From Escherichia phage vB_EcoD_Over9000: 44,583 bases of DNA. A model generated the notes under the pieces. That model was not told where the DNA came from and did no database searches. It saw only the letters and a program-made list of their open reading frames with translations. This document shows, piece by piece, positions 24,176 through 40,050 of the stretch (positions within the stretch are counted from its first letter, which is position 1; every line of letters begins with the position of its first letter). The position numbers were made by a program, and so were the translations under genes. The stretch lies in sequence record NC_073079.1; one strand, 5' to 3'.

Positions 24176-24180
24176 ATAGA

Positions 24181-25341: not shown

Positions 25342-25403
25342 TATGTTTTCCTTTTTAGCGTGGGGCCATATTGCCCCGACGCGTTAACTATAGTGCAACC
25401 AAC

Positions 25404-26095: not shown

Positions 26096-26561
26096 GTAGC
26101 TCACTCTCGCTCATTATTTCAATTTGTGCGCTGCCGCATGGCGGCGCTTCGTCAAATATTATCAATTGCTGGCACTTGTTATTGCTCGGCCCGACTTCAC
26201 CGGTTACAGCATGTATGAATCGGATCCGCCAGTCCAGAAGAATTATCAGGTTTGCAGTCTTCCTGGCCAGCTTCGCCCACTTCGTCGACGTGTCCTGATT
26301 CAGTAGCATGACCGTCCGGCGTCCGTGCGCTGCGCACTCTACCCACGGCAGCGGATCGGAATACGGCGGATTGCACCACTTCCACCCTTTCAACTCGGAC
26401 CAGTCCACATCAAGCGCGCTGTGTTCCGCCGTGAAGTAACGTGGTAGCAGATGATTGGTGTCGCTTGCCGCCATATCGTAACGGAATCGGTATTTCCGAC
26501 GAAGCGGTTTAAATAAAGCTGGCGGCGTGCGCCAGCTATCTTTTTGCTCATTCTCCGTCAT
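26076..26561 (-). CDS. DNA N6-adenine methyltransferase (phage Dam family)
   Basis: 161 aa; WRTPP...DMAAS...WCNPPYSD matches the phage T1-type Dam family signature including the catalytic NPPY motif. Confidence 0.85.
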   Translation of the reverse strand: MTENEQKDSWRTPPALFKPLRRKYRFRYDMAASDTNHLLPRYFTAEHSALDVDWSELKGWKWCNPPYSDPLPWVECAAHGRRTVMLLNQDTSTKWAKLARKTANLIILLDWRIRFIHAVTGEVGPSNNKCQQLIIFDEAPPCGSAQIEIMSESELHEYLNR

Positions 26562-27006
26562 AGTCGGGATCTATCGCATACAGGGCGGTTTTCTTGCCAC
26601 TGGATAGCACGCGTTGGACTCGGGATAGCTCCGCCCTACTGAGCGGTCGGCTATCGGAATAGTAGCTGCCGTTTGCACGCCACGCTATACGCACCAGTCC
26701 TTTCCGCGGGATCGAAGACTGGCTGCCCTTCGGACGGACGTACTCCTCGGCCAGTTTGCAATGCTCGCGCAGACCTTCGGCAGTGATGCGGTTTAGCGCG
26801 ACGGTGGTTGTGTACCCGGTGCGCTGCATAATACCCATCAACTCATACAGCAGTTCGAAGCGCTCCTCTAACTCCTTGCGCGCCTTCTCCTCGCCTTCAT
26901 AGCTCGCCAGGTAGGTGTCCGCCAGCGCGTTCGCCCGTTCGACCTGTTCGCGGGCTTCGAGGCATTGCGCGGCCCAGTAATTTTTCTCTTCTTGTAAAAT
27001 TTTCAT
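26548..27006 (-). CDS. hypothetical protein (coiled-coil N-terminus)
   Basis: 152 aa; Glu/Lys/Ala-rich helical N-terminal half; promoter-like ATTGGTTGCAT copies upstream (27056-27085). Confidence 0.5.
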   Translation of the reverse strand: MKILQEEKNYWAAQCLEAREQVERANALADTYLASYEGEEKARKELEERFELLYELMGIMQRTGYTTTVALNRITAEGLREHCKLAEEYVRPKGSQSSIPRKGLVRIAWRANGSYYSDSRPLSRAELSRVQRVLSSGKKTALYAIDPDYDGE

Positions 27007-27087
27007 CGTGTTGTCTCCAGGTATTAAAAAAGGCGTCCAAACCGGACACCCTTAAGATAATGCAACCAATATGATTATGCAACCAAT

Positions 27088-27411
27088 TTACGAATAAAAA
27101 TTTGGGTCGCGTGCAACGTCTACTAGATACAGGTTACTCATGCGATTGCCGTAGTGCCCCGGTGTGCGCTGGCGGCACACAACGGCGAAGCCTGGTGGAA
27201 TTGTATTGCCCGTCTCGATAATCCACGCCACGCGTGCGCCAGACAGCGTCTTGCCGTTGTATTCGATGCGCGTGCCACCATCGGCAGTGTTAAGGTTGCC
27301 AATCTTACATCCTGTGGACTTCAGGCGAATGACACCGGTCTTGCTGTCGTAGGAAAAAAGCTGATTGGTCATTGCCACTGAAAAGTCGATTGCGTCGAAT
27401 GCAGTATTCAT
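27088..27411 (-). CDS. HNH_3-like small protein (possibly degenerate homing-endonuclease relative)
   Basis: 107 aa; layout GK...ARVAWIIETGNTIPPGFAVVCR...HYGNRMSNLYLV parallels the HNH_3 pattern GK..HRLxW...G.IP.G..IDHI.G...DNR..NLRL, but canonical His positions appear substituted; by-eye alignment. Confidence 0.4.
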   Translation of the reverse strand: MNTAFDAIDFSVAMTNQLFSYDSKTGVIRLKSTGCKIGNLNTADGGTRIEYNGKTLSGARVAWIIETGNTIPPGFAVVCRQRTPGHYGNRMSNLYLVDVARDPNFYS

Positions 27412-28103
27412 TTTAAATTTTCCTCGTTAACCGCTATCGCGAAGCCGCGCGGGGTGAGTGAGCGGATTAATTTTGTACGAGCGGATTTACCACCGAGGCG
27501 ACTATACTGCTTCGAGTACCCTTTTTCAACGAAAACAGGTTTCTTCTCTGGCATACGGAAGCCGTTTCCAGTCCATAAGCAGGTCAGCTTCGGATATGAA
27601 TCGCGGGCGTTGATGTATTCAGGGAACAACGGATGTACGTCATCCTCCGGCAGATATCCCCCATACTCCCACGGGTCGAACGAGTGATCAGGCTTGCGCC
27701 ACTGGGTGGAAAGCACACTGCGCGGATTCTCAATCATATATGGCACTTCGAAGAAGTCACCCAGGTAAGCGGCGATCTTCGCGGTTCGCACCGCCTTAAG
27801 CTGAAAGGCGGGGTCTTTTGCACGCTTGCGCGGGAAAGCTGGCGCGCCGCTCACTGCCAGATCCGTACACGGAGGGAACGCATAGATTATATCCGGCGTA
27901 CCGAAATCGCCATTCATCGCGCGGTCCACGAAGTCCAGGTCGATAAACTCATTGCGATACCGTATTCCGCGACCATAAATCCGGTAGTCAAGGTACGACC
28001 CGTGATCGGCTTCGGAGTAGTTAAAACAGTAGCACTTATGCCCCATCTCGGCAGCACGCTCAATCATCAAGCCGCTGCCGTCAAACAATGACCAGATTAT
28101 CAT
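27408..28103 (-). CDS. DNA cytosine-5 methyltransferase-like protein (compact, no obvious target-recognition domain)
   Basis: 231 aa; motif I SLFDGSG, motif IV AFPPCTDLAVSG (Pro-Cys catalytic dipeptide), motif VI-like IENP; unusually short for a C5-MTase. Confidence 0.65.
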   Translation of the reverse strand: MIIWSLFDGSGLMIERAAEMGHKCYCFNYSEADHGSYLDYRIYGRGIRYRNEFIDLDFVDRAMNGDFGTPDIIYAFPPCTDLAVSGAPAFPRKRAKDPAFQLKAVRTAKIAAYLGDFFEVPYMIENPRSVLSTQWRKPDHSFDPWEYGGYLPEDDVHPLFPEYINARDSYPKLTCLWTGNGFRMPEKKPVFVEKGYSKQYSRLGGKSARTKLIRSLTPRGFAIAVNEENLK

Positions 28104-29524
28104 TTGCGCGCCTTCTTAGCTTTCATGTATTCCATCAAGTCGTCCTGAATGTCTCGCTTACTGTCGCGACGCTCGGCGACCAATTCGTCCAGTGTCCCGC
28201 GAGCCTGGATAATGTAGACGAATACTGGTCGAGGGTGTCCGGCTTGCATCTGGCGAACCGGCCCGATACGTTCAACGATCTGCGAAAAATGCTCAAAGTT
28301 CCATGTATCGGAGAAGATTGCCAGGTGATGACCGCCGTCCTGCAAGTTAAGGCCGTGGCCTGCCGATGCCGGGTGCGCAAACATGATGGGGATCTCGCCC
28401 CTGTTCCATGCTTCCATATCCTTATTGCCCTGCTTACCTTTACCCAACGCAACGCCGTGCGGGAATTTCTTCTTGAGACGTGCCAGATCATGCTTGTACT
28501 GATAGGCAACGAGCAACGGTGCGCCGTTCAACTCCTCCACGATACTTTCCAGCGCGTCCAGTTTAGCGTCGTGAATTTTCACCCATTCGTCGGTGCGCTC
28601 GCCGTCTTCGTCGACCTTATACACGGCCCCGGAAGCAAGCTGAAGGCACTTAATAGTCTTCGAAGCAGCGTTCGCCGCCTCCACCGTTCCGCTTTCCAGT
28701 TCGGCAAATAGCTCCGCTTCGAATTGGTCATAAATCTTGCGGGCTTTTTTCGGCAGGTCCACAACAACCGGCGTATAGATTGGCTTGTCACACCCGAAGT
28801 ATTCAGCCGCATCAACGGTTAGCGACACGTCGGACAGTCGTTGTTGTATTTCTTTCTCGGAGTTCTTAAGCGGGGCGTGCTGCATCGTGAAGCTGCCAGG
28901 CTTAACAGGCTTGCTAATAAACCAGCGGTCCGTGAACGCCTTATAGCTACTGCCGAGACGTTCGCCGCCGTCGACAAACCACGTCTGACCCCATAGGTCT
29001 TTCAGCCCGTTCGGTGCGGGTGTGCCAGTCAGGTTAATCCAGCGCTTGACGTGCTTATGTGCAATCGCTGCCAGCGCACGGGCGCGCTTACTTCCCTGCT
29101 TGCTTCTATAGCCTTTCAGCTTAGTGGATTCATCGGCAACAACGACCGTAAAGGGCCACTCGTCGCCGCAATACTCTACAAGCCACTCAACCACATCATA
29201 GTTAACACAAACCACGTTAGCGTCGCTCTCAAGCGCAGCGATGCGGTCCTTCTCTGGTCCGGTGCCGTCTACTACCAGCAGGGCAGGGAAGCGCCATTTT
29301 TCTTGCTCCGGAGGCCATGTACCGGACGCAACGCGCAGCGGGGCCAGCACCAGTACGCGGTCCTCCTGGTTGGATAGGATGCCGGTCTGGAACATTTTAT
29401 TCAGCGCCCACATAGTCGCGCCGGTTTTACCCGACCCCATTGTCGCCCAAATATTGCAGCGCTTATGCTTGAGGATGAACGCGGTTATCAACTTCTGATA
29501 TTCGCGACGTCGGAAACGTGCCAT
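28100..29524 (-). CDS. SF2 DNA helicase (SNF2/DEAD-like)
   Basis: Walker A GSGKTG and DExx-type box VVVADESTKLK; start placed at ATG 29524 (MARFRR...) to avoid an 86-bp overlap with the upstream small gene; the ORF-track start is 29614. Confidence 0.8.
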   Translation of the reverse strand: MARFRRREYQKLITAFILKHKRCNIWATMGSGKTGATMWALNKMFQTGILSNQEDRVLVLAPLRVASGTWPPEQEKWRFPALLVVDGTGPEKDRIAALESDANVVCVNYDVVEWLVEYCGDEWPFTVVVADESTKLKGYRSKQGSKRARALAAIAHKHVKRWINLTGTPAPNGLKDLWGQTWFVDGGERLGSSYKAFTDRWFISKPVKPGSFTMQHAPLKNSEKEIQQRLSDVSLTVDAAEYFGCDKPIYTPVVVDLPKKARKIYDQFEAELFAELESGTVEAANAASKTIKCLQLASGAVYKVDEDGERTDEWVKIHDAKLDALESIVEELNGAPLLVAYQYKHDLARLKKKFPHGVALGKGKQGNKDMEAWNRGEIPIMFAHPASAGHGLNLQDGGHHLAIFSDTWNFEHFSQIVERIGPVRQMQAGHPRPVFVYIIQARGTLDELVAERRDSKRDIQDDLMEYMKAKKARK

Positions 29525-29528
29525 ATCT

Positions 29529-29747
29529 TTATTCCGCCTTTTTCCAGACTTCGGTTTCACTGTTCCAGTTCCTTTTTGTAGCGTCGTAGTTGGTGGCGTG
29601 TCCGATGTGCACACCCGTCGCCCGGAAGCTCTTAAATTTTTGCCAGCATACCGTCAACGGCAGCGGGTCATTCATGCCCGCGATAAACCATACTCGATCG
29701 CCCGGTTTACATTCGCCCAGCTTGGTGAGTCGGTAATGATCTTTCAT
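29529..29747 (-). CDS. small hypothetical protein
   Basis: About 72 aa from ATG 29747 (RBS GGGAGAC); ends 4 bp before the proposed helicase start. Confidence 0.4.
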   Translation of the reverse strand: MKDHYRLTKLGECKPGDRVWFIAGMNDPLPLTVCWQKFKSFRATGVHIGHATNYDATKRNWNSETEVWKKAE

Positions 29748-29790
29748 CGTCATGTCTCCCAAAAATGGCGGGACAAGCCCGCCGTATTAA

Positions 29791-29964
29791 TTATTTTTGC
29801 TCTGCGCGGTAGCGGCGCTGCCGTTCGCGCTCTTTTTTATTGCGGCACGATTTGCACTCGGCCCGATACCCGTCCGGGCTGCGTGCAGTCTTACCAGTGT
29901 ATTTATGGAACTGGGATAGCGGTTTAATGCAGCCGCAATTACTGCAACGTTTTTCTTCAATCAT
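29791..29964 (-). CDS. small zinc-ribbon protein (putative)
   Basis: 57 aa from ATG 29964 (RBS GAGGG); CxxC...CxxC (CSNCGC ... CKSC) and basic C-terminal tail. Confidence 0.4.
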   Translation of the reverse strand: MIEEKRCSNCGCIKPLSQFHKYTGKTARSPDGYRAECKSCRNKKERERQRRYRAEQK

Positions 29965-30004
29965 CTCTAAAACCCTCGATATTGCTAACCGGCACACTAT
30001 ACCG

Positions 30005-30283
30005 CTATGCGACCAATTCAGCAACCAATAAATCACAGTCGGCGATGTTGTCTATAACGCGAACGTCAGCGCCGCGGCGGGCCATCCGCTCATGTTCACG
30101 TACCTGGTGCGGCTTCGGTTTTCCTCCGGGGCGCTTCACTTCGACGAACACTATTTTGCCGTTGATGATAATAATCAGGTCGGGAGCACCTGCGCGCCCC
30201 TCCCATGCCAGTTTTCTGCAGAATCCGCCGACCTCTTTAACCCGTTTCATAAGGTGACGCTGCACCTTGCCTTCGGGTGTCAT
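30005..30283 (-). CDS. VRR-NUC domain nuclease
   Basis: 92 aa; GAPDLIIIINGKIVFVEVKRPGGKPKPHQ matches the VRR-NUC PD-(D/E)xK signature (PD...EVK...Q). Confidence 0.8.
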   Translation of the reverse strand: MTPEGKVQRHLMKRVKEVGGFCRKLAWEGRAGAPDLIIIINGKIVFVEVKRPGGKPKPHQVREHERMARRGADVRVIDNIADCDLLVAELVA

Positions 30284-30471
30284 TTAGTTTGCAATTCCAC
30301 GTTACGCAGACGAAGGTCTACCGGTATATCCGATCGACCGGTTAGCGCCAGCGCCAGGTTTTCAGGCGTGACAAGTGCCGTAATGGTCTTGCCACGTTCC
30401 AGTCTAATGACGATTCGAATCTCGTCGTTTTCCGCCGCGCCAGCGCGCATAATGCTCATTTCTGCTTTCAT
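30280..30471 (-). CDS. small hypothetical protein
   Basis: 63 aa from ATG 30471 (RBS AGGAAG), 4 bp after the polymerase stop; ATGA coupling with the VRR-NUC gene. Confidence 0.4.
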   Translation of the reverse strand: MKAEMSIMRAGAAENDEIRIVIRLERGKTITALVTPENLALALTGRSDIPVDLRLRNVELQTK

Positions 30472-30475
30472 AATC

Positions 30476-32767
30476 TTACTTCCTGTACCTGTACATAATG
30501 TCGCCTTCGGCGGCAAGTGGGAAGCCTTTCGCCCAAATAGGCAGGTCGCACATCAGCGCGCAAAGCTCCTCTGTCGTGTAGTCGTCGGTGTCCGGCACTT
30601 CTGTGATCAATTCATCATGCACCGATAGAACGATTTCATAGCCCGCAGCTTCAACGCCAGGCATTGACCAGGCGAGAATATCACGGCACAACGCCTGTAC
30701 TATGTTCTCCGTCAGTTTGCCGCCGTAGGTATACTGGAAGCCCCACTGGCGCGTCGTCTGATTCTCGCCCTGATATTTAATGCGGGTGCTGGTGCGTTTC
30801 TTGCCGGTATCTTCGTCGATCTCGGTCGTCACTGACAGCGCAATGCCTGGATAACTCATAATACGCCCCGACGGCAACTCAATTTTCAACCACCACCCCG
30901 CGGCGTTCGGGTCGTCGCGTTCCTCGTCGAAGGTTGGGTCATGCTTCGCCTTCGTGCGGACTATCTTGAGCGCTTTCTTACCATCCGGGCGAACGTTCGC
31001 GCCAGCCCAGTACGCTTTGCCAGGATTGCGGATTGCACACAACACCGCGTCCTCAAGCTCGGCCCAAAAGGCTACCGTCTTCGGGTGAGCCTCGCGCCAC
31101 ATGCGTTTAATCGCATCACACGTAAGCCATACGTTTTTCGGCAGTATGTAAGTCGGGCGCTCGTCCTTCTTGCCAGGCTTTGGCGGTCGCTTCGCTTCGT
31201 TAATGCGGGCGTACTCATAACCCCGTTTAGCCGCTGCCCAAATGTGATCGGGGAATGTGCCCTTCATGACGTCCGCCATCGCGTAAAGGTCGAGGCCCAG
31301 GTTTTTAGCGAACTGCAAGAACGCCGCGACGCCGCCACCATAGCCCAGTCCCAATTCACACGCCTTACCGATCTGGCGCAAGTCTTTGCGGTTGGCTTTA
31401 ATGTAGTCCGGGTCCAGGCCGAACATCTTACCGGCAGTCTCACAATAGATATCGCGACCGGCCCTAAACACCATTAGCGCGGTTTTCTCGCCCGCGATCC
31501 AGGCAAGTCCACGCCCTTCCACGTTGGAGTAGTCCGCTACGACAAACTTCTTGCCCTTAGCCGGGATAATGCACCCGCGAACGGTAGAGGCTGTTAGCTT
31601 AGATATGTCATACGCCCAGTGCGCGGTCCCGCGTAACAGGGAATTGATGCCGTTGGTGAGCATGTGCGACCGGACCCAAAAAGCAACGTCGCTCTCGCCT
31701 TCGCGGCGCTTAATCTTCCCTTCGTGATCGTCGCTATACTCGCCGCGTGCCAGGTTTTGAGGCTGGAAGCCTTTACCCGCCCAGCGCAGCGTGCGCTTTG
31801 CGCCGCCATACTGAAGACACCCACGGCGGCGACCATCTGCGGATAAGCCGTTAACTAGCGGATTGTACTTAGTCGATGCCGTTGATGACGCACCGAGGCG
31901 CATTTCGATAAGCGCTTTGCCTTCGTCGGGGAAGTCCGGGTCTTCAAGCAGGTCGTTAAGTGTGGATTTCTGCGCGTTGTGGATTGTGAACGCCGGGGCG
32001 ATATCACGCAGGATTGGCAGGAAGTCATTGCCTGTCAGTTTACCGCCAAATCGCTCCCAGGCTTCCTCCTTCAATTCTTCCTTATGCGCCTGCACCGCTT
32101 TGATCGCGGCGCGCGCCAGGTCAACGTCCACATAGAAGCCGCGGTCATTGATCAACTGGTCAATAAGCAGGATTTCGTCTTCCTTCGGCGTGTTACCCCA
32201 GTCCGGTATGCGCCAGTATACTTCCCTCATCGCTATAATATCCAGCGCGGCATAGCGCAGGAATTTAGCCCACTCCTCGGGGTGCGTCTCGCGCGTGTAG
32301 CGGCGGATTTTGTATGTCTTAGGGGTTGGCTTACAGAATCGTTTGATCAGCGCCTTGCCCGCCTTATCCTTCGCGTGCTCTGCGTCGACGCCCAACACCT
32401 GGCACTGCATATCGAGGCTACCCGGCAGCGCGTGTCGAAAGGCCATAATCATGGTGTCTTCGATCTGGCACACCGGCAGATCTATACCCCACTTCTCGCG
32501 AATAACAAGGCGGTCAAACAGGAGGCCGTTAGCCATCACTATTTTTGCTTTCTTGCGGGATACACGGCGGAGCGCCTTGCGCAGTTCACGCGGCATTGTT
32601 GGGGATTCAGTGGCATCCCATGTCTGCACGCGGCCCTCGTCGATGGCGTATGTGCAAATCATAATCTCGGTGGTTGGGTGCTCTGCGTAGGCGTACGCCC
32701 CAACCTTCTTTAGGTCCACCCCGCTAAATGTCTCGGTGTCGAGAAACAGACGTTCGAAGTCTTTCAT
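30476..32767 (-). CDS. DNA polymerase I (family A) with 3'-5' exonuclease domain
   Basis: 763 aa; exo motifs FLDTETF and YAALD; polymerase motif A VVADYSNVEGR, motif B RKDLRQIGKACELGLGYGGG, motif C VLSVHDELI. Confidence 0.9.
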   Translation of the reverse strand: MKDFERLFLDTETFSGVDLKKVGAYAYAEHPTTEIMICTYAIDEGRVQTWDATESPTMPRELRKALRRVSRKKAKIVMANGLLFDRLVIREKWGIDLPVCQIEDTMIMAFRHALPGSLDMQCQVLGVDAEHAKDKAGKALIKRFCKPTPKTYKIRRYTRETHPEEWAKFLRYAALDIIAMREVYWRIPDWGNTPKEDEILLIDQLINDRGFYVDVDLARAAIKAVQAHKEELKEEAWERFGGKLTGNDFLPILRDIAPAFTIHNAQKSTLNDLLEDPDFPDEGKALIEMRLGASSTASTKYNPLVNGLSADGRRRGCLQYGGAKRTLRWAGKGFQPQNLARGEYSDDHEGKIKRREGESDVAFWVRSHMLTNGINSLLRGTAHWAYDISKLTASTVRGCIIPAKGKKFVVADYSNVEGRGLAWIAGEKTALMVFRAGRDIYCETAGKMFGLDPDYIKANRKDLRQIGKACELGLGYGGGVAAFLQFAKNLGLDLYAMADVMKGTFPDHIWAAAKRGYEYARINEAKRPPKPGKKDERPTYILPKNVWLTCDAIKRMWREAHPKTVAFWAELEDAVLCAIRNPGKAYWAGANVRPDGKKALKIVRTKAKHDPTFDEERDDPNAAGWWLKIELPSGRIMSYPGIALSVTTEIDEDTGKKRTSTRIKYQGENQTTRQWGFQYTYGGKLTENIVQALCRDILAWSMPGVEAAGYEIVLSVHDELITEVPDTDDYTTEELCALMCDLPIWAKGFPLAAEGDIMYRYRK

Positions 32768-32934
32768 TGCTTTATCCTCACTACGGCGTCAGCGCTGCCG
32801 ATCATGGAGAAGATGCCGTCTGACAGGGCGATCTCTTCGCCGTTGTTGCGAATCTCGGCAACTGTGAAATATTCCCCCAGTAGCTTGGACCATACTTGCA
32901 TTCCGACTTTTACTTCGCTGGCTTTAATACGCAT
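32764..32934 (-). CDS. small hypothetical protein (uncertain)
   Basis: 56 aa ORF (MRIKASEVKVGMQVWSKLLGEYFTV...) whose TGA stop overlaps the polymerase ATG (ATGA); below the ORF-track size cutoff. Confidence 0.3.
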   Translation of the reverse strand: MRIKASEVKVGMQVWSKLLGEYFTVAEIRNNGEEIALSDGIFSMIGSADAVVRIKQ

Positions 32935-32992
32935 TTTTCATTGTCCTATTAAAAAGCCCGCATTAAGCGGGCTTGAATAGTGGGCTTTGCCC

Positions 32993-33775
32993 TTAACGGC
33001 GGCGACGTTTACGTGGCGCTTCGTCTTCGTCGTCGTCCTCATCTTCGTCATCGCGTGGCTTACGACGTTTGCGAGGTTTTTCATCTTCCTCATCGTCGTC
33101 GTCATCGCGGCGCTTGGATTTCTTGGACTTGCGCGGCTTGTCATCTTCATCATCGTCATCACGACGTTTTGACTTTTTGGACTTGCGCGGTGCTTCGTCT
33201 TCGTCGTCGTTGTCCAGGTCTTCATCGGAGCAAGAAGACCCGCCACCTCCGAAGGCTTCGCCGTCTTCACGGAATCGCAGACCCAGCAAGCCAGCACCGA
33301 GTCCCTTACCGTTGGTGTTGTTCCACGCCCAAATATCCAGTGACACGTTGCAATAACAACCGGAATAGATTTCCTGGCCTTCGATCTCGTCGCCTTCTAC
33401 GGTCAGACCTTGCTCGGTCTGCTTCTCGCCCAGTGACGTTTGGATGTTAGGCTGTTTGAACGATTTGGCGTTGATGTACAACATGCCTTCGAACTCTTCG
33501 GTTACTTCGTCGCGCTCGTCACCGTCGCGAACTGCGCATTCCTTAGAATCCTGGGCGTAGTGGCGGTCCATCCACTTATCGGCATTCTTCTCGGATTTCA
33601 GCTTGTCGGTGAGCACTGCGCGCGCTGCCGCTTCCACTTTGTCCACCTGCGGATCTTCTTTATCCAGAAGAATCACTGCACGGTATGCCGGTTTTTGTCC
33701 ATCCTGTTTAGGGGTATCGCGTTCCCAAATTTTCAGGAAACATACGCGCACATTTTTCAGGTTGACTTTAGCCAT
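32993..33775 (-). CDS. ssDNA-binding protein-like (DUF2815-type) with zwitterionic repeat C-terminal tail
   Basis: 260 aa from ATG 33775 (RBS GAGGAA); N-terminus MAKVNLKNVRVCF... resembles DUF2815 phage SSB-like proteins; C-terminus has three repeats of acidic run plus KPRKSKKSKRR-type basic run. Confidence 0.55.
   Translation of the reverse strand: MAKVNLKNVRVCFLKIWERDTPKQDGQKPAYRAVILLDKEDPQVDKVEAAARAVLTDKLKSEKNADKWMDRHYAQDSKECAVRDGDERDEVTEEFEGMLYINAKSFKQPNIQTSLGEKQTEQGLTVEGDEIEGQEIYSGCYCNVSLDIWAWNNTNGKGLGAGLLGLRFREDGEAFGGGGSSCSDEDLDNDDEDEAPRKSKKSKRRDDDDEDDKPRKSKKSKRRDDDDDEEDEKPRKRRKPRDDEDEDDDEDEAPRKRRRR
33040..33230. repeat. imperfect tandem repeats within the SSB-like gene 3' end
   Basis: About 57-bp units (...TTGGACTTGCGCGG...TCATCTTCATCATCGTCATC...) encoding the alternating acidic/basic protein repeats. 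Confidence 0.6.
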
Positions 33776-33865
33776 TTTCCAATTCCTCATTTTCACATGT
33801 ATCGGGGTTATTGGAAGCCACCCCGTTCGGCTTGGTTGCAAATTTACTCGGTTGCGCCTAAGCGG

Positions 33866-34108
33866 TCAAGCATTTTCATCAAAAAGATTTCGGGTCACGT
33901 AATTGGTTGCGTTCTCGATCCAGCTTAACGGCGGGCGGTCGATGTTCTTTTCCACCCAATCGACGGCAACTTCGCTATAGCCGTCATCCAGCCAGCGGGT
34001 CGGATGGCGAATCATCCACGCCACCATTAACACGCCGTGCACGCAATGCAGGATAAAGCCCAGCGCGCCGAGCAAAAACATCAATAAGATTGCGAATACT
34101 TTATTCAT
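33866..34108 (-). CDS. small membrane protein
   Basis: 80 aa; N-terminal hydrophobic helix FAILLMFLLGALGFILHCV; overlaps the upstream nuclease gene by 8 bp. Confidence 0.4.
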   Translation of the reverse strand: MNKVFAILLMFLLGALGFILHCVHGVLMVAWMIRHPTRWLDDGYSEVAVDWVEKNIDRPPLSWIENATNYVTRNLFDENA

Positions 34109-35531
34109 TGCTTAAGTCCTCGTCAGTAGCTTCCGACCACGCAGGGCGAGGGTCGTCGATTGGGGCTAACACCGGTTTGGCTGGTGCGCGCGTGATTTTA
34201 GCACACAGCTTCGCCCACACTTTCGGCTTTTCGTCCTTCAGTACCTTCTCGGCATCCGTAGGGCTGAGCAATGTTTCTTTGTACATCACATCGCGCTTGA
34301 TCCGGGCCTTCGTGAAGATTTCAATAACTTCGCTCTCGTCCGCCCACTTACGGATCCCTTCCTTACCGGCAACCATCTTGAGGCCCAGCGATTCACCATC
34401 ACCCGCCATTACAGCCTTAAATACCGCGGACTCGATCGCTTTGATGTGCTGGCGCATTGCGTCCAGACCTTCATAAGCCTTGCGCAGTTCCGCAGCGCTC
34501 ATAGCGCCTGGGGCCGCTTCTTTCTTACCGCGCTTCGCACGTCGTGCCGCCTTCCTGGCTTCGCGGGCCATATTGCGGTCGTGATTGGCGCATTCTTCCT
34601 CGGTCGCCACGCTCACGTCGTCGCCCAGGTCTTCGTCGGTTGCCGTTGGAGGTGTCATCGTGTCGATTGCGGCCTTAGCGCGGGCACTACACTGATCCGC
34701 AAATCGACACCACTGGCACGCATCAACGCTGGGCCGGAAGTCTGCGCGGGTGAGTCCCTTCTTGCCTCGGGAATACGCCTCCAGTGCGGCAATAGCGCGC
34801 TTGGATGCAAACTTCGCGAATATCTCCAGCGCTTCTACCGAAATATCCCACTCCGACGCCCCGCCGCAATACGGCTGGAAGATAACCAGTCGCACGGTTG
34901 TAATGTCGTACATAGTTTGCAGCTTGCGCAGCAGTCCGAGCGCGTACAACATAAGCTGTTTGTTCTCTTTCGCCTCGACCTTATGCCGCCCGGTCTTCAG
35001 GTCGCCAACAATCAGCATGTACGTTCCATCGGTCTTTTTCATTACCATGACCATATCGGCAGTACCGAACGTTTTAATCCTGTTGCCGTCGATCTCGTAG
35101 CCTGAGTGAAGGACGCGGGTCAGATCGGCGCGCATCTCAAGCTGGACAAACTCCGCCACTTCGAGGAGCGGTCGCCAGTGGTCGATGTACGCGTCGCACT
35201 GTTTCACCATGTCGTCGTTGACCAGTACGCCGCCTTTCGGTGCTTTAGGGTGTGCCTTTACTGGCCCCTTGCCTTCGTTCTCGACGTAGCACCCTTTATA
35301 CGCCTTCGCGGTTATCAGCTTTTCCCCAGCAATGATGCGGTTTAGCACGACCTCTGATACAGTGTGCATACTTGTACCGTTAATCGCAGCTTGCCCGGAT
35401 TCGTTCGGGATATCTTTTTCGACCACCAGGGCGGCAGGGCAACCCATCCATTTTTTAGCACCGGACGGTCCGAGTAATGAGTGTTCCGTATTGCTACCGG
35501 ATTGCGTTTTACGTTTTGGTTTAATCGCCAT
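34101..35531 (-). CDS. Cas4-like PD-(D/E)xK nuclease (DUF2800 family)
   Basis: 476 aa; N-terminal LLGPSGAKKWMGCP...NGTSMHTV matches the DUF2800 start signature; Cys cluster CQWCRFADQC; charged C-terminal extension. Confidence 0.7.
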   Translation of the reverse strand: MAIKPKRKTQSGSNTEHSLLGPSGAKKWMGCPAALVVEKDIPNESGQAAINGTSMHTVSEVVLNRIIAGEKLITAKAYKGCYVENEGKGPVKAHPKAPKGGVLVNDDMVKQCDAYIDHWRPLLEVAEFVQLEMRADLTRVLHSGYEIDGNRIKTFGTADMVMVMKKTDGTYMLIVGDLKTGRHKVEAKENKQLMLYALGLLRKLQTMYDITTVRLVIFQPYCGGASEWDISVEALEIFAKFASKRAIAALEAYSRGKKGLTRADFRPSVDACQWCRFADQCSARAKAAIDTMTPPTATDEDLGDDVSVATEEECANHDRNMAREARKAARRAKRGKKEAAPGAMSAAELRKAYEGLDAMRQHIKAIESAVFKAVMAGDGESLGLKMVAGKEGIRKWADESEVIEIFTKARIKRDVMYKETLLSPTDAEKVLKDEKPKVWAKLCAKITRAPAKPVLAPIDDPRPAWSEATDEDLSNE

Positions 35532-35719
35532 TATTCCACCCTTGAAAACTGAGCAATGTAATAATCATGTTCAACATTGGCCCGCTTAGCGGCATTGTTC
35601 ATGGTAGCCGCCAGTCCTCGGGCTTGCATCCAGCAGCAATTCCAGTTTTGATTCATAACAATTTCCGGTTGCTCGTCGCCGGTAATACGGCAACGAAATA
35701 AAACAAAGAAGATAGCCAT
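35531..35719 (-). CDS. small hypothetical protein
   Basis: 62 aa ORF tightly packed between neighbouring reverse-strand genes. Confidence 0.3.
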   Translation of the reverse strand: MAIFFVLFRCRITGDEQPEIVMNQNWNCCWMQARGLAATMNNAAKRANVEHDYYIAQFSRVE

Positions 35720-35971
35720 TTATTTTGTCTCCCAGCGGTCAATTGTTCTTGCTTCGGATGCAACTGCGAAGCGAACATATTCCAGATTGGAATCCGCCCA
35801 AATATAAAAATCGGGGTTAGTAAAGGTGGTGCGCTTAATTTGCGCGGGGGTGTTGCGGCGTTTATCTATTACGGCAACTCGCGACTGAAAGCTGCCGATG
35901 CGTTCGAACAGCCAATAGTACGGGCGCTGGTCGCGGGAGTCCACCGCCTCGATTAGCGTGAAGCGTGCCAT
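35720..35971 (-). CDS. small hypothetical protein
   Basis: 83 aa ORF; start 10 bp downstream (in transcript direction) of terminator 35982-36011. Confidence 0.4.
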   Translation of the reverse strand: MARFTLIEAVDSRDQRPYYWLFERIGSFQSRVAVIDKRRNTPAQIKRTTFTNPDFYIWADSNLEYVRFAVASEARTIDRWETK

Positions 35972-35981
35972 TGTCTCGTCC

Positions 35982-36011
35982 TCTAAAAAGAGGCCCGCTA
36001 ATCTGCGGGCC
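35982..36011 (-). terminator. intrinsic terminator (reverse strand) after the acidic-protein gene
   Basis: GGCCCGC-AGATTA-GCGGGCC hairpin on the reverse strand followed by CTTTTTAG. Confidence 0.6.
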
Positions 36012-36019
36012 GGAATATA

Positions 36020-36535
36020 TTAATCTTCCAGTTCGAAATAGGTTTCGACGATTTCTTTTAGCTCTTTGTGGAAGTCTTCGACGTCGTCATCTTCCAGCTT
36101 GGCGATTGATTTGATCTCGAACGATTCCAGCAGGTCGTCGAATTCGTCGTTCGCATCGTCGTCATCGCCACCGGCGATAATCGCGGCATACTGTTTGATT
36201 TCGTCGCGCATCTCTGCCAGCGGGTCGGCATCTTTCTTACCTTTGCCTTTCGCCGGTGCTTTCTTAGACTTAGCCGGTTTTTCGTCTTCGGCATCGTCGT
36301 CGTCATCTTCTACGACTTCTTTTTTAGCCTTACCTTTCGCCGGGGCTTTTTTAGATTTAGCCGGTTTTTCGTCTTCGGCGTCATCGTCGTCATCTTCGAC
36401 AACTTCTTTTTTGGCCTTAGACGGCTTCTTGTCTTCCTGTTTACCAACGGCAGCGCCAACGGTTTCATAATGCTTTGCAATGGTTTCCAGTGCTACTACG
36501 CCGCGAGTGATCAGGTTTACGATTTGCTCAAACAT
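36020..36535 (-). CDS. highly acidic protein with tandem repeats (DNA-mimic / anti-restriction candidate)
   Basis: 171 aa from ATG 36535 (RBS GGAG); two 28-aa repeats KKEVVEDDDDDAEDEKPAKSKKAPAKGK; acidic C-terminus; own terminator 35982-36011; first gene of the reverse block. Confidence 0.55.
   Translation of the reverse strand: MFEQIVNLITRGVVALETIAKHYETVGAAVGKQEDKKPSKAKKEVVEDDDDDAEDEKPAKSKKAPAKGKAKKEVVEDDDDDAEDEKPAKSKKAPAKGKGKKDADPLAEMRDEIKQYAAIIAGGDDDDANDEFDDLLESFEIKSIAKLEDDDVEDFHKELKEIVETYFELED
36248..36415. repeat. 84-bp tandem repeat (2 copies) within the acidic-protein gene
   Basis: Near-identical units ...CTTTCGCCGG(T/G)GCTTT(C/T)TTAGA(C/T)TTAGCCGGTTTTTCGTCTTCGGC(A/G)TC(G/A)TCGTCGTCATCTTC... 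Confidence 0.7.
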
Positions 36536-36771
36536 GGTATATCTCCGATTGGTTAAGTTTAGGTGTCGGCAGTTAACTTCGTCGGTGGCCTTAACATATT
36601 GCCAGGTTACGCGTTCTCCCGTTCGGGTAGTGGACCTGGTTATATAATCACGGTTGGGAATCCTGACACTTCGATCCGGCCCCTGCGTTGCCCCTCTCCA
36701 GTTTGCGTCCTGCATCCTGTCGACGGGGTGAATATTAGATTGGTTGCATGTGGGGTGTCAACAACTAATTT

Positions 36772-36937: not shown

Positions 36938-37267
36938 ATGAATGTAAACGACGCAATCGAAATGTTAACGAAGACTGTTTGCAGTGAGACAAGCCGGTCA
37001 TGGGCATACACCGATGCCGTGGGGGCTGTGTTATTTGAAATCGAACGACTGCGGCTTACCGAAAAAGAATTGCGCGCCAGGCTGGAACTACTCAACGGTA
37101 CAGCAGCAAGCAAGCTGCAAAAACACAATGAAGAAATGGAAGAATACAAAAAGCAGGTTATCCGTTTGCGCGCCGAGGGTAAATCATGGGCGATGATTGC
37201 CGAGTTGACCGGAATTAATCAGAGCACAGTGCGCTCCTGGGTACGCAATAATAAAACTTCTAAGTAA
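36938..37267 (+). CDS. helix-turn-helix DNA-binding protein (putative transcriptional regulator)
   Basis: 109 aa; C-terminal GKSWAMIAELTGINQSTVRSWVRN is an HTH; promoter-like TTGACA-17-TAGTTT at 36878-36906; RBS GAGGG. Confidence 0.6.
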   Translation: MNVNDAIEMLTKTVCSETSRSWAYTDAVGAVLFEIERLRLTEKELRARLELLNGTAASKLQKHNEEMEEYKKQVIRLRAEGKSWAMIAELTGINQSTVRSWVRNNKTSK

Positions 37268-37277
37268 GGCCACGGCA

Positions 37278-39515
37278 ATGAGCTTGATTAAATTCGCTGT
37301 AACAAAACCCGCTAAAAAAGGCGAAAAAGCCAGGGCGGAAAACTTCCAGATGACGACCGATGAGTTTTTCGAATTTATCAAAGATGCGAAAGAAATCTCC
37401 TCGGTGCATATCAACAAGACGGAAGATAAAGCCGAGTACGCGCGCCGCAAGCGTAAGGCCGATGGCATCGTGGCGTATACCAGTGACGGATTGCGTCGTA
37501 AGACCAGTGCGGTGGACCGCTCGATCCTGTTCTTCGATATCGACCGTACCGACACCCGCACCTTACGCCGCTGCCGTAAGGCGTTCATCGACGCGGGACT
37601 GGAGCACGTCTTCCACACCACCACCGGCGACCGCCACCCGCTGAAGGGCGGCACGCGTTGCGCCCGTTTCCTGGTGCTCACTGACAAGCCTGTACCGGCT
37701 GAAGACCTGGGCCGCGTCCAGTATGCACTATTACACCAACTGGGTCTGTCAGATGTGGCCTTCGACGATTGCACGAAAGACACAAACCGCCTGATGTACC
37801 TGCCACACCAGCAGTCTGTTATTAAGTGCCACTACGGCAAGCGTGCCCGCGTCCGTCGTCTGCTTCGCCTGGCGGATAAGTTGGGCGTGGAGAAGGAGGA
37901 AGTACGCCGCGAGCTTACCCAGGGCGACGACGCAGTGGCAGACGGCATTCTGGACTGGTGCTTCCAGGCAGGATTCGAGGAGTTATCCTCCGGTCGCGGT
38001 TATGAAGTGCCGTGCCCGAACGAACATCTGCACAGCGGCGAAGGGTCGACGGCTATCATGGTCAAGGATGGCGAGATCCGTTTCAAGTGTATGCACACCG
38101 GCAACGAGTGTTGCTCGGAACTGAACAGACACCAGCACCTAGCACTACGTCTTATCGGAATCCCGGACCACCTGAACGTCGAACCGCACAACATGTCACG
38201 TAAGCAAATCGCCGCCATCCTGCCAGGTCTGGACGACGAGGAAGTGGAATCGTGCTATGCGCATATAGTTGATGCGGTCGGTGACGGCGACGAGTACGGC
38301 GTATGTACCGACGCGGACCTGGATAACGAACCGGTCGCACTGTTCAGTAAGCACGACCCGATAATCGAGGGGTTGATTAACTTTAAATCGACCTGGTACA
38401 TGGCTGGCGAGTCGAACATCGGTAAATCGTTCTACGTGCTTGGCCAAATGGGCGCGGTTGCCGCAGGTATTCCGTTCGGCGGTGCGAAGGTCGTCCAGTC
38501 GCATTGCTTCTATTTCGATGCGGAAGGTGGCGAAGCCTCCAACCAGCGTAAGGAAGCATTGCAGATCAAATATGAGCACGATCTCGACAAGCTGCACATT
38601 ATCGACCTGCAATCTCGCGGCTGGGATATCACCAGCAAATCCGGCTTGCGTGAAGTTATCAGCTTCATCAACCGCACCGCTAACGGCGAACCGGTTGGCC
38701 TGGTGGCGTTCGACTCACTCAACCAGACTGTTGCGCTGCGGTCCGCCGATGCAAAACCGTTCGACGAGAACAACGCCAGCGATATGGGTGAAGTGGTCAA
38801 AGCGCTGAAGGCCATTGCGGAAAATACAGGCGGCAGTGCGGGCGTCATCCACCACCCGGCTAAAGGTGCAAACGGCAGCAGATCCCCCCGCGGGTCCGGC
38901 GCGCTGCATGGTGCTGTCGATTCTGCGTTCTTCCTGGAGCAGCCTGACGACAACCAGCCAGGACAACTGAACCTGTATCACGAAAAGGCGCGTAATGGCA
39001 TCAAGCAAGCGCCGCGCGGCTTCGTCCTGCTCAAGTGCAAGGTTAAGGTTGATCTCCGCAAGTCCGAGGCGTTCGAAGCCCACCAGTCCACCAGCACTGG
39101 TCCTGACTTCGGCGATGTGGTTGCCGGTTGGGACGTAAAGCCAATCGCATCCACGCCACGCGACGAGACTCTTTACCTCGTACCGGTCGCCCTGGCGCCG
39201 TTCGCTATCGAACAGGCAAAGGCCGCTGGCAAAGCAGCAGTTAAGGAAGAGAACGCCGCAGGCCCGCGCAACGAAAAAGAGAAAGTGCTTTATGCGGCAC
39301 TGGAAAAACTGATGGAAGATAACCCGGACCATACCGGATTCAGTAAATCGGCAATTGTCCGCCAGGCGGGACTGGCGAAAGGTGGCACCTCGACGAAGGC
39401 AATCGACGATATGGTCGAGCGCGGAGTGTTAGGTTTTTATACCGATCCGCGCACCGGGGCCATCTATGGGTCGTCGAATATCGTCATCAAAACGAATATA
39501 CCCATCACGCTTTAA
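37278..39515 (+). CDS. DNA primase / replicative helicase (AAA_25 / DnaB-RepA-like ATPase with N-terminal primase-like domain)
   Basis: 745 aa; Walker A GESNIGKS and Walker B LVAFDSL in C-terminal half; Cys/His cluster CPNEHLH...CMHTGNECC in N-terminal half; followed by an ori-like repeat region. Confidence 0.75.
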   Translation: MSLIKFAVTKPAKKGEKARAENFQMTTDEFFEFIKDAKEISSVHINKTEDKAEYARRKRKADGIVAYTSDGLRRKTSAVDRSILFFDIDRTDTRTLRRCRKAFIDAGLEHVFHTTTGDRHPLKGGTRCARFLVLTDKPVPAEDLGRVQYALLHQLGLSDVAFDDCTKDTNRLMYLPHQQSVIKCHYGKRARVRRLLRLADKLGVEKEEVRRELTQGDDAVADGILDWCFQAGFEELSSGRGYEVPCPNEHLHSGEGSTAIMVKDGEIRFKCMHTGNECCSELNRHQHLALRLIGIPDHLNVEPHNMSRKQIAAILPGLDDEEVESCYAHIVDAVGDGDEYGVCTDADLDNEPVALFSKHDPIIEGLINFKSTWYMAGESNIGKSFYVLGQMGAVAAGIPFGGAKVVQSHCFYFDAEGGEASNQRKEALQIKYEHDLDKLHIIDLQSRGWDITSKSGLREVISFINRTANGEPVGLVAFDSLNQTVALRSADAKPFDENNASDMGEVVKALKAIAENTGGSAGVIHHPAKGANGSRSPRGSGALHGAVDSAFFLEQPDDNQPGQLNLYHEKARNGIKQAPRGFVLLKCKVKVDLRKSEAFEAHQSTSTGPDFGDVVAGWDVKPIASTPRDETLYLVPVALAPFAIEQAKAAGKAAVKEENAAGPRNEKEKVLYAALEKLMEDNPDHTGFSKSAIVRQAGLAKGGTSTKAIDDMVERGVLGFYTDPRTGAIYGSSNIVIKTNIPITL

Positions 39516-39534
39516 CGGCGACCGATGACGACCT

Positions 39535-39654
39535 GAAAGATTAAATTTTGCGCGCATTGGTTGCCGATATGGGAATCCCCATATCGCTAAAAGATTAAAT
39601 TTTGCGCGCATTGGTTGCCATTTTGAGTGTTTTTAGTCGGTCGCATTGGTTGCC
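39535..39654. repeat. direct repeats with intervening inverted repeat (ori-like region downstream of primase/helicase)
   Basis: 31-bp direct repeat (G/A)AAAGATTAAATTTTGCGCGCATTGGTTGCC at 39535-39565 and 39589-39619, partial third copy CGCATTGGTTGCC at 39642-39654; hairpin GATATGGG-AATC-CCCATATC between; AT-rich stretch follows. Confidence 0.7.
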
Positions 39655-39689
39655 GTGTAGTGTAAATATAATGAATAGTTATGCAGTTT

Positions 39690-39870
39690 TATTGCATAAA
39701 GTAAGCGGGACAAAAAGCGGGACAAACTTAGGGCGGGACAAAGCGGGACAGCACCCCCGTCCCGCCCCGGATGACGCGGCTTCCAGAGGAGCGGGACAGC
39801 GGGACAGCACCCCAGTCTTTCAGACTAGACGGGGGTCAGTGGCCCCCCTCGTCTGAGACTGAATAAAATC
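39690..39870. repeat. iteron cluster (GCGGGACA boxes) plus conserved hairpin element, copy B
   Basis: About 190 bp roughly 85-90 percent identical (by eye) to 11975-12145, including the same ~50-bp hairpin element with only loop changes (TCAACGG vs TCAGTGG). Confidence 0.8.
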
Positions 39871-40021
39871 CGGGATTGCAAAATACACGGCAGCATGACG
39901 CGAAGTGCGGTCGCGGATGAACTAGGCAACCAATGCGAGTTACATTATGCTGAGTGAAAAATGCGGTTTGCAGTCACAGCTGATAGCGATCAACTTTTTC
40001 ATGCGCGTGATTAATATTGGT

Positions 40022-40050
40022 TGCATCCAGCCGGGCACCCTGCTATATTG
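40022..40050 (+). promoter_or_regulatory. sigma70-like promoter upstream of gene 40078
   Basis: TTGCAT (40022-40027), 17-bp spacer, TATATT (40045-40050); followed by palindromic element TTGGTTGCACACCAA and RBS AGGAGGG. Confidence 0.5.

Follow-up and report, generated by a model that had tools for sequence, protein, structure and literature searches.

A duplicated iteron and hairpin element of a Dhillonvirus genome as a probable origin-type binding site of the phage helicase-primase

Among the closest described systems, the SaPI Rep/PriRep origins carry short iterons (5–7 nt) directly downstream of the helicase ORF, which are read by a C-terminal winged helix; the protein and its origin are matched in specificity, and the primase is either fused to the helicase or encoded adjacent to it (PMC9371898). 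The ~44-kb Bacillus siphophage SPP1 has two similarly organised repeat-bearing origins, one in the replication module and the other in an extended intergenic stretch that splits the late structural genes. Both oriL and oriR of SPP1 are targeted by one origin-binding protein, and a fork stall at oriR was proposed to bring about the theta-to-sigma switch (PMC6316719, PMC3485210). In PMC4234260, which refers to Ziegelin & Lanka 1995 and Yeo et al. 2002, the alpha protein of P4 is described as a single polypeptide with primase, helicase and a C-terminal winged helix binding the short origin repeats, and RSF1010 is cited as a similar system. The ORF904 of pRN1 (prim-pol, helicase and winged helix) is accompanied by an essential ~100-nt stem-loop directly 3' of the gene, which works also when relocated, and stem-loops of this sort were recognised 3' of related genes in phages (PMC4234260).

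The window, i.e. the whole 44,583-nt stretch of DNA analysed (NC_073079.1), is the complete or nearly complete genome of a Dhillonvirus, an HK578/SO-1-like E. coli siphophage. The gene layout was read by analogy with the collinear, well-annotated phage PaulFeyerabend.

55-24175, + strand: terminase through tail fibre genes
24202-36715, - strand: replication and recombination genes
36938-37267, + strand: small HTH gene
37278-39515, + strand: helicase-primase gene, 745 aa (Pfam AAA_25, 2.3e-19; PHROG 3228 'replicative helicase-primase')
39195-39512, + strand: last 106 residues of the helicase-primase, a predicted winged helix and proposed iteron reader
after 39515 to the genome end, + strand: small genes, holins, endolysin and one more gene

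A PD-(D/E)XK nuclease and a Gp2.5-like annealing protein are also encoded by the phage.

The original prediction that a ~190-bp segment near 39.7 kb is closely matched by a second one near 12.0 kb proved correct. The pairwise alignment resulted in a direct repeat of 195 nt with 79% ungapped identity, located at 11950-12144 (copy A) and 39672-39866 (copy B). The copies are in the same orientation with an offset of 27,722 nt, or 16.9 kb apart if the genome is a circle. The two segments had been placed correctly, but the homology starts ~20 nt further upstream, and two more iteron half-units (11826-11868 and 11905-11947) are also part of copy A. Both copies lie upstream of + strand transcription units, as had been stated: copy A ends 64 nt before the start of the tape-measure gene (12208), inside the 385 nt of non-coding DNA that separate the tail-chaperone genes from the tape-measure gene, and copy B begins ~190 nt past the helicase-primase stop and ends ~210 nt before the next ORF (ATG at ~40078).

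The word CGGGACA was found 19 times in the window, compared with 6.2 ± 2.6 expected, and none of the shuffles reached 19. Copy B contains six of these, 190–290 nt past the helicase-primase stop codon, copy A contains another six, and three are in the two half-units upstream of copy A. Altogether, 15 of the 19 are in or beside the two copies, 14 of those 15 on the + strand. The parts of copy B are as follows.

39650-39699, + strand: A+T-rich island (A+T of 0.70-0.77 over 30 nt, at or above the 99th percentile of the genome)
39671-39683, + strand: dyad box GAATAGTTATGCA, kept in the Guernseyvirinae relatives
39693-39699, + strand: TGCATAA, within the A+T-rich island
39706-39750, + strand: iterons 1-4, CGGGACA at 39706, 39718, 39734 and 39744
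39759-39767, - strand: inverted iteron GTCCCGCCC, which can pair with iteron 3
39792-39806, + strand: iterons 5-6, at 39792 and 39800
39813-39861, + strand: 49-nt imperfect hairpin or palindrome with the loop bases GT at 39839-39840
39862-39867, + strand: downstream box GAATAA
39885-39896, + strand: downstream box ACACGGCAGCAT

Copy A has the following parts.

11826-11868 and 11905-11947, + strand: two extra half-units, 91% identity
11940-11952, + strand: dyad box TGCATACCTATTC, an inverted variant of the copy B box
11971-11977, + strand: TGCATAA
11984-12028, + strand: iterons 1-4, at 11984, 11996, 12012 and 12022
12036-12044, - strand: degenerate inverted iteron ATCCCCACC
12070-12085, + strand: iterons 5-6, at 12070 and 12079
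12091-12139, + strand: 49-nt hairpin or palindrome with the loop bases AC at 12117-12118
12140-12191, + strand: downstream A+T-rich island with GAATAA (A+T of 0.73 over 30 nt, at or above the 99th percentile)
12163-12171, + strand: extended -10-like TGATACAAT, a promoter reading made by eye
12178-12184, + strand: CGGCAAC box
12185-12191, + strand: downstream TGCATAA, just before the tape-measure start

The dyad box varies as G(A/C)ATA-NN-TAT(T/G)C. Between the two sets of iterons, the centre is G+C-rich (A+T 0.2-0.33) with just one inverted iteron, and the A+T-rich islands are situated outside this core. The flanking islands (about 39650-39690 and 12130-12160) are candidate unwinding regions, and that of copy B is a candidate unwinding element or accessory-factor site; the downstream island of copy A was kept in all copy A flanks. 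A sigma-70-like promoter, TTGCAT-17-TATATT, was detected downstream of copy B at ~40020-40048, and such a promoter is present also after the homologs of the relatives. The inverted iteron which is degenerate in copy A of the window reads GTCCCCGCC or GTCCCGCC in other Dhillonviruses. Each half-unit consists of two direct iterons and inverted iteron(s) forming a hairpin (fold z of -5.2 and -2.7), and half-units were found upstream of copy A in seven of seven Dhillonvirus genomes. In the public record of CS16, the hairpin of iterons 3-4 and the inverted iteron of copy B is labelled 'terminator', and the same label is given to the first half-unit in the record of HK578.

The 49-nt hairpin (CAGTCTTTCAGACTAGACGGGGGTCA..GGCCCCCCTCGTCTGAGACTG) was identical in the two copies except for AC at 12117-12118 of copy A and GT at 39839-39840 of copy B, which bears out the claim that the copies of this element differ only in the predicted loop. 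Allowing 3 mismatches, the 28-nt core of the hairpin was found at two places only in the window, with 0 expected (100 shuffles). The same fold was obtained for both copies, with a z of about -3.9 as RNA and about -3.7 as DNA, the differing bases being in the apical loop. The hairpin is composed of a 5' mini-palindrome AGTCT-TTC-AGACT, a central G5/C6 stem and a 3' arm GTCTGAGACTG. Across the clade, the corresponding parts are a covarying 5' mini-palindrome (AGTCT/AGACT, TCCTC/GAGGA, CTCCT/AGGAG, ATCATC/GATGA), a central G-run/C-run stem and a 3' arm repeating the palindrome, and the loop is the least conserved part. An inverted iteron is found at the apex in L142 (TGTCGG), phiEap-2 (TGTCCG), L135 and copy B of Ioannina (TGTCCC) and L147 (ATCCCC); the hairpin apices of this window carry none. 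When the whole 181-nt element was folded as RNA, the iteron part gave no shared stable structure (z of -2.0 for copy B and -0.1 for copy A), and the only robust fold was the 3' hairpin. The stem is conserved and the loop has changed, as had been pointed out, but this pattern fits an RNA hairpin, a DNA hairpin or cruciform and a dyad-symmetric protein site equally well, and covariation does not separate these three since the palindromic units are self-complementary.

With a 600-nt query around the element, 157 phage records were matched at 80-99% identity. Exactly two copies in the same orientation were present in seven of seven complete Dhillonvirus genomes, and copy A was present in every Dhillonvirus genome examined. 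The positions of the iterons relative to the hairpin were invariant in the 14 copies of the seven genomes: -107, -95, -79, -69, -21 and -12/-13. The Guernseyvirinae have a single cluster after the helicase-primase gene and no gap before the tape-measure gene, which indicates that copy B is ancestral and copy A is a Dhillonvirus innovation. The spacer and the outer flanks now exist as stable A-type and B-type versions that have diverged from each other, and the duplication is therefore older than the radiation of the genus. The iterons and the hairpin arms stay essentially identical between the copies, referring to selection on these parts. The hairpin apex is AAC in copy A and AGT in copy B of the window, AGT and AAC, respectively, in PaulFeyerabend, and the same variant in both copies of JL1. 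As the apex variants move between the positions in close relatives, exchange between the copies is implied, in support of the earlier suggestion that they could drive recombination.

To find such arrays outside the genus, viral contigs were scanned for three closely spaced CGGGACA, resulting in more than 120 loci, almost all without nucleotide similarity to the window. Many of these share a common grammar, namely direct CGGGACA followed by a G+C-rich palindrome which is flanked by inverted TGTCCCG. All the ORFs within 4 kb of the arrays were clustered into families, and the largest cross-locus family was that of the window's helicase-primase, with 46 loci, one ORF in each and a median distance of 50 bp from the array. 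In practically all cases, the array was located downstream of the helicase-primase-family gene or at the 3' end of this gene, and arrays upstream of it were very rare; this geometry holds in 44 unrelated loci and in loci selected by protein. Relative to the upstream gene, both orientations of homologous arrays were observed. In a second class of 21 loci, the arrays are inside a ~255-aa gene matching 'replication initiation protein' PHROGs. The arrays were tied to one of these two replication-initiator genes at 65 of the 117 non-Dhillonvirus loci, without overlap between the classes. That the CGGGACA word is common to two unrelated initiator classes was counted against the element being an origin.

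In the reverse test, loci were picked by protein alone, which gave ten relatives with 37-46% identity. The layout of the window was found again right after the gene in three of the ten (L142, L143 and L147) and in the complete Guernseyvirinae genomes of Pantoea AH01, Hafnia TS33, Salmonella Shemara and Enterobacter phiEap-2. The layout starts with a GAATAGTTATGCA box, 3-4 direct iterons, an inverted iteron, a spacer and 2-3 more iterons, and ends with a long hairpin, a CACGGCA(A/G)C box and the sigma-70-like promoter of the next operon; the box after the hairpin is found in all the Guernseyvirinae relatives, and its counterpart after copy A is CGGCAAC. The iteron words are lineage-specific: CCGACA, GGGATAA, GGGGATGA, CGGACAA, AGGGAT and GGGGAGA. 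In six of the ten protein-picked relatives (L138-L141, L144, L145), the array 3' of the gene was absent and terminators and convergent genes were found there, so that the link between the array and the gene is frequent and not universal.

An unrelated Prim-Pol/AAA_25 subfamily, ~18% identical to the window protein, was examined at 38 protein-selected loci. At nearly all of them, the 510 nt 3' of the gene contained 5-9 copies of one 7-mer, compared with ~0-0.5 expected. The word drifted with the divergence of the protein: CGGGACA, CCGGACA, GGGGACA, GGAGACA, CCAGACA, CGCAACA, CGTGACA, CGTAACA, TGCAACA and CCGCACA. In PLSDB, no small plasmid built on a helicase-primase gene and an array was found that would indicate self-sufficiency of the two; the 15 records obtained were mostly very large replicons.

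The 745-aa helicase-primase consists of a diverged AEP-type primase N-terminus, an AAA_25 RepA/DnaB-like core and a predicted C-terminal winged helix. Residues 24-177 match a primase PHROG, and a Prim-Pol is carried by members of the family. In the Pfam scan, AAA+ families were not matched and AAA_25 (RecA/RepA-like) was assigned. The sequence search of the PDB resulted in a non-significant match to RSF1010 RepA only (1g8y, E 0.46), and the protein search with the C-terminal domain alone in 2 matches only. The winged-helix match is generic, as many transcription regulators score equally.

The small HTH protein (36938-37267) is encoded beside the helicase-primase in all relatives; 71 of its 72 residues are identical in AH01 and L142, phages with different iterons (CGGACAA and CCGACA, respectively), and it was excluded as the iteron binder. 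In the same pair, residues 1-640 of the helicase-primase are 92-100% identical, in contrast to 50-55% in the last ~120 residues. The identities of the core and the C-terminal domain were 86/40, 83/52 and 85/63% where the iteron differs. Within Dhillonvirus they were 87/93, 80/83 and 83/80%, the C-terminal domain being conserved to the same degree as the core. AH01 and phiEap-2, which share the iteron word, have in common a GGGN.RRR...RGL motif in the apparent recognition helix, and the others are without it. However, the C-terminal domains of AH01 and phiEap-2 are only 52% identical in spite of their common word, and the co-variation is therefore not perfectly clean. As the repeated word co-varies with a protein domain, the iterons behave as DNA-binding sites, and from these sequence comparisons we infer that the winged-helix C-terminal domain of the helicase-primase would be the part that reads them.

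Compared with the SaPI systems, the locus has similarly multiple short iterons immediately downstream of the helicase ORF, and a predicted C-terminal winged helix diverges in step with the iteron word, unlike the core and the HTH protein, a likeness of co-variation only. In contrast to the SaPI Reps, which are AAA+ proteins of the SF3/SF6 type, the core of the phage protein is of the AAA_25 RecA-type, RSF1010 RepA/DnaB-like. In the SaPI origins, opposed iterons flank an A+T-rich centre, such a centre being typical also of plasmid origins, whereas the phage element has mostly direct iterons, a G+C-rich centre and outer A+T islands, and its unit includes a long conserved hairpin. Considering the AAA_25 core and the lack of an A+T-rich centre with opposed iterons, the element appears to work like the origin of a self-loading initiator-helicase and not as a member of the SaPI Rep group.

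As in SPP1, one site is in the replication module and the other, copy A, in a gap within the tail gene block, the 385-nt gap being absent from the Guernseyvirinae. SPP1 employs an origin-binding gp38, a loader gp39 and a DnaB-type helicase gp40, whereas a single multifunctional protein is present here. In addition, SPP1 oriL is inside gene 38, no hairpin module is described for SPP1, and the two systems have no sequence relationship. The P4 alpha protein similarly combines a primase, a helicase and a winged helix (a predicted one in the phage protein) in one polypeptide, but its primase is Toprim-type and its helicase SF3, and the iteron word and arrangement are unrelated. P4 depends in addition on crr, a further cis site with iterons that lies a few kb away from ori; copy A resembles crr. 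The conserved 49-nt hairpin, ~300 nt 3' of the helicase-primase gene, is reminiscent of the pRN1 stem-loop; pRN1 is, however, an archaeal plasmid with an SF3 helicase and no iterons. The helicase core is of the RepA/AAA_25 type, as in RSF1010, and the logic of the proposed origin is similar to that of oriV of RSF1010, in which the iterons serve the initiator and the structured single-strand initiation hairpins ssiA and ssiB serve a dedicated primase. In RSF1010, RepC, RepA and RepB' are separate proteins, the iterons are 20-mers and the ssi sites lie on opposite strands, in contrast to the one protein of the phage.

The repeat, its conservation and geometry, the link with one gene family and the co-variation of the iteron word with the C-terminal domain were all observed directly, and they suggest that the element is probably an origin-type DNA binding site of the phage's own helicase-primase. 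The earlier proposal of a functional cis-acting element was thereby strengthened and, among the kinds it had named, a regulator binding site fits the iterons. By analogy with the systems described above, the six CGGGACA iterons would be double-stranded sites for the winged-helix C-terminal domain. Their binding would lead to self-assembly of the hexameric helicase beside the A+T-rich flanks and the 49-nt palindrome. The palindrome may extrude as a hairpin, the flanks and/or the palindrome would melt for the loading of the helicase, and the primase domain of the same protein would lay the first primer.

Copy B (39.7 kb), in the ancestral position, is likely the primary origin. Copy A (12.0 kb) probably serves the same protein as a second site of binding or firing; shared binding of both copies is plausible since the iteron words and spacing are identical. 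Copy A could be a second origin, or a bound roadblock which stalls the first fork and leads to recombination-dependent concatemer synthesis, as proposed for SPP1 oriR. The PD-(D/E)XK nuclease and the Gp2.5-like annealing protein could serve the recombination-dependent restart. Titration of the initiator or an influence on the transcription of the tail genes are other possible roles. The element is of a known kind, and an origin in Dhillonvirus or Guernseyvirinae is absent from the literature searched: the searches returned no binding, origin-mapping or replicon data for this protein family and nothing on the origin or these repeats in the two groups. The GC skew gave no origin signal; its extremes coincide with the strand switches (~24 kb and ~36 kb), and as the skew tracks transcription, it is silent on the origin.

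Alternatively, the iterons could be operator-like sites by which the helicase-primase or another phage protein controls the downstream operons, as a roadblock or a timing switch, the targets being the tape-measure and tail genes that follow copy A, and the lysis cassette together with the small genes that follow copy B. Such control is unlikely to be the main explanation, and as it is compatible with an origin, both could hold. Replication initiators often also repress transcription. The position of both copies just upstream of + strand gene blocks, the sigma-70-like promoter after copy B, the extended -10-like TGATACAAT after copy A and the constant neighbourhood of the small HTH gene are in agreement with such control. 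However, the arrays in unrelated phages follow the replication gene and not any set of downstream genes, and 21 further loci carry them inside initiator genes. Moreover, the small HTH protein is unchanged when the iteron changes, and the tail genes of the Guernseyvirinae are managed without an element before the tape-measure gene.

It had also been proposed that the hairpin acts as RNA, e.g. as a put/nut-like antitermination element or a processing site; a stability site or a decoy for an RNA-binding protein, serving the tail and lysis operons, would belong to the same kind. The results make this very improbable. In Rfam, the whole window at the gathering threshold and both copies at E<=10 gave chance-level matches only, and thus a described RNA family was not matched. 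Unlike with the lambdoid nut and HK022 put sites, the sigma-70 promoter scan gave no promoter directly preceding copy B; around copy A, the scan gave promoter-like matches only upstream of the half-units or inside or after the hairpin, and no boxA-like sequence was seen by eye in either copy. The conserved stem with two differences in the loop and its RNA fold (z of about -3.9) would suit an RNA, and the canonical terminators at 5052 and 11105 in the long + strand operon could be served by a read-through device. The covariation of the 5' mini-hairpin across the clade also agrees with an RNA but is equally expected for self-complementary DNA. Against an RNA, the upstream CGGGACA part is without a stable shared fold (z of -0.1 in copy A), homologous arrays are found in both orientations relative to transcription, and the apex in several relatives is an inverted iteron, a protein-site word. 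DNA is favoured over RNA because of the link with a DNA-binding domain, the variable orientation of the arrays, and the lack of an Rfam match, an upstream promoter and a U-tract.

The hairpins were also considered as factor-dependent or non-canonical terminators or attenuators closing the early helicase-primase transcript and reducing the flow into the tail genes, which is improbable to a similar degree. In contrast to an intrinsic terminator, the G+C-rich stem-loop has no U-tract directly after it, the 49-nt hairpin being followed by GAATAA, and the scan gave no + strand terminator at either copy. The real terminators of the phage differ (GGGGCC..GGCCCCTTTTT at 5052, 11105 and 24179). The position right after the gene end and the terminator labels of the CS16 and HK578 records agree with this explanation, but a terminator before the essential tape-measure gene would be counter-productive, and the six phased iterons and their co-variation with a protein domain would be left unexplained.

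The lowest probability was assigned to copy A being a neutral leftover of a duplication or illegitimate recombination with no function of its own. Its absence from the Guernseyvirinae and its degenerate inverted iteron in the window are consistent with this, but copy A is carried by every complete Dhillonvirus genome (157 records with 354 places), the iterons, spacing and hairpin of copy A are near-identical to those of copy B, and its spacer and flanks are in the stable A-type form. This pattern corresponds to selection on specific sub-elements, which disfavours neutral decay. A rolling-circle origin of an HUH-Rep, which the layout of iterons beside a hairpin had suggested, was excluded, as the annotated relatives have no HUH/Rep-endonuclease gene and the hairpin loop is variable.

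A wider version of the origin reading, considered tentative and rather doubtful, is that the module represents a separate type of origin architecture, common among uncultivated phages, and that copy A acts as a programmed theta-to-concatemer fork barrier. In such an architecture, one polypeptide of primase, AAA_25 helicase and winged helix would read mostly NNNN-ACA words, and the palindrome, often with an inverted iteron at its tip, would be a structured loading or priming signal. If so, the SPP1 oriR hypothesis would become testable in genetically tractable E. coli phages, several of which are in the BASEL collection, and origins and initiator specificity would be predictable from sequence in many phage genomes. 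The co-variation of the iteron word with the C-terminal domain over hundreds of contigs is a data set for the recognition code of winged helices.

Phages of Dhillonvirus and Guernseyvirinae are often considered for use in phage therapy and biocontrol. If the proposed assignment of the element to the helicase-primase as an origin-type site is right, a sequence-level origin prediction would be available for both groups and the specificity domain of their helicase-primase would be identified. The unusual presence of 385 nt of non-coding DNA within the block of tail genes would be explained, and the small 'hypothetical proteins' and 'terminators' placed over the element in public records would be probable mis-annotations. 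The phage would then be a second, genetically tractable example of a siphophage with two origins, and suitable for testing the part proposed for the second origin in the theta-to-sigma switch.

The motif TTGGTTGC was found 17 times in the window, compared with 1.9 expected occurrences. The majority of the sites are intergenic, and the majority have the same orientation as the adjacent genes. The following positions are examples:

6227, 22342, 25395, 27062/27079, 30021 and 39926, - strand, TTGGTTGC sites
36740, 39557/39611/39646 and 40017/40048, + strand, TTGGTTGC sites

At several sites, the TTGC(A/T) half is followed by a TAtAnT hexamer at a distance of 17 nt, so that TTGGTTGC looks like a sigma-70-type promoter motif of the phage's own. 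Copy B of the iteron-plus-hairpin repeat, situated at about 39.7 kb, is preceded by three direct TTGGTTGC sites and followed by one inverted and two direct ones. The analogous motif of the Guernseyvirinae, relatives with a single iteron cluster after the helicase-primase gene, is TGTTGGCTG, and in locus L146 the space downstream of this gene is filled with arrays of TGCAACCAAC (reverse complement). The 109-aa product of the neighbouring gene (36938-37267) contains an HTH resembling sigma-70 region 4, and this protein is a candidate binder of the TTGGTTGC motif.

Two further features lie near the element, one directly after the helicase-primase stop codon and the other about 25–45 nt downstream of the hairpin:

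39533-39619, 54-nt tandem duplication
12178-12184 (copy A, at about 12.0 kb) and 39885-39896 (copy B), CGGCA(A/G)C box

The 33-nt cores of the duplication, CT(G/A)AAAGATTAAATTTTGCGCGCATTGGTTGCC, are 97% identical, and a small hairpin, GATATGGGAATCCCCATATC, lies between the two copies. The 54-nt unit is single in HK578 (L134) and in the related locus L135. The CGGCA(A/G)C box follows the hairpin in both window copies and in all Guernseyvirinae homologs; its role as a candidate primase start site or accessory-factor site is pure speculation.

Small genes annotated as 'hypothetical protein' overlap copy A or B in public records, and small ORFs run across the element in the window:

MZ501097, bas15_0018 and bas15_0052; OQ589852, 11586-11732; NC_019419, D873_gp15 and gp47: annotated small genes
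11947-12144 (copy A) and 39602-39856 (copy B): small window ORFs

Close relatives are separated by 1-nt indels within these ORFs, e.g. CGGGACAGCGGGACA vs CGGGACAGGCGGGACA, and the conservation over both copies tracks the iteron/hairpin grammar and not the reading frame. The small genes are therefore probably not real, judging from the sequence comparison. The 'terminator' feature of CS16 covers iterons 3-4 together with the inverted iteron, and that of HK578 covers the first half-unit, one of the extra iteron groups upstream of copy A; both correspond to hairpins formed by iterons, with no U-tract. A terminator of the canonical intrinsic type (GGGGCC-loop-GGCCCCTTTTT) is present in three copies:

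5052-5076, 11105-11129 and 24179-24203, intrinsic terminator

Two of the three fall within the long structural operon of the + strand, one behind the spanin genes and the other behind the gene for the major tail protein; thus the downstream tail genes need read-through or a promoter of their own. The conserved TGATACAAT after copy A may be relevant to this need.

Internally repeated coding DNA with 45-, 54- and 87-nt units (families D1, D3, D4) was detected in two - strand genes:

33009-33227, in the gene 32993-33841
36123-36428, in the gene 36020-36715

GAC/GAA/AAG-type codons are abundant on the coding strand of these repeats, which encode acidic/lysine-rich low-complexity stretches in a Gp2.5-like SSB homolog and a hypothetical protein.

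The copy of the element in OQ221563.1 (Acinetobacter phage NJ01) is 88% identical to that of the window. This record is a typical Dhillonvirus genome with Acinetobacter baumannii as the deposited host, which is an unusual label for this genus of E. coli phages. The Dhillonvirus matches also include a single 'Campylobacter' and a single 'Salmonella' record.

In one clade of related IMG/VR contigs (L138-L141, L144, L145), whose helicase-primases are 43–45% identical, no iteron array was found downstream of the helicase-primase gene. The gene is followed only by 1–2 canonical terminators and convergent genes; the origin of these phages, if of iteron type, must be elsewhere.

The same 7-mer, CGGGACA, is common to two unrelated initiator classes. 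In the second one (PHROG 270, 'replication initiation protein'; ~250-350 aa), CGGGACA arrays are located within the gene's own coding sequence; this class comprises 21 IMG/VR loci, including:

L005, L029, L032, L037, L038, L039, L047, L061, L065, L076, L096, L103, L108, L114

These in-gene arrays encode SGT/AGQ-rich linker peptides, and the layout, with the origin inside the initiator gene, corresponds to the one in lambda O and in gene 38 of SPP1. In the Prim-Pol/AAA_25 subfamily of distant helicase-primase homologs (IMG/VR L157-L235), the iteron words downstream of the gene are:

CGGGACA, CCGGACA, GGGGACA, GGAGACA, CCAGACA, CGCAACA, CGTGACA, CGTAACA, TGCAACA, CCGCACA

The ACA tail is mostly retained and the first four bases vary, which suggests that the iteron recognition surface of this subfamily would consist of a constant and a variable part.
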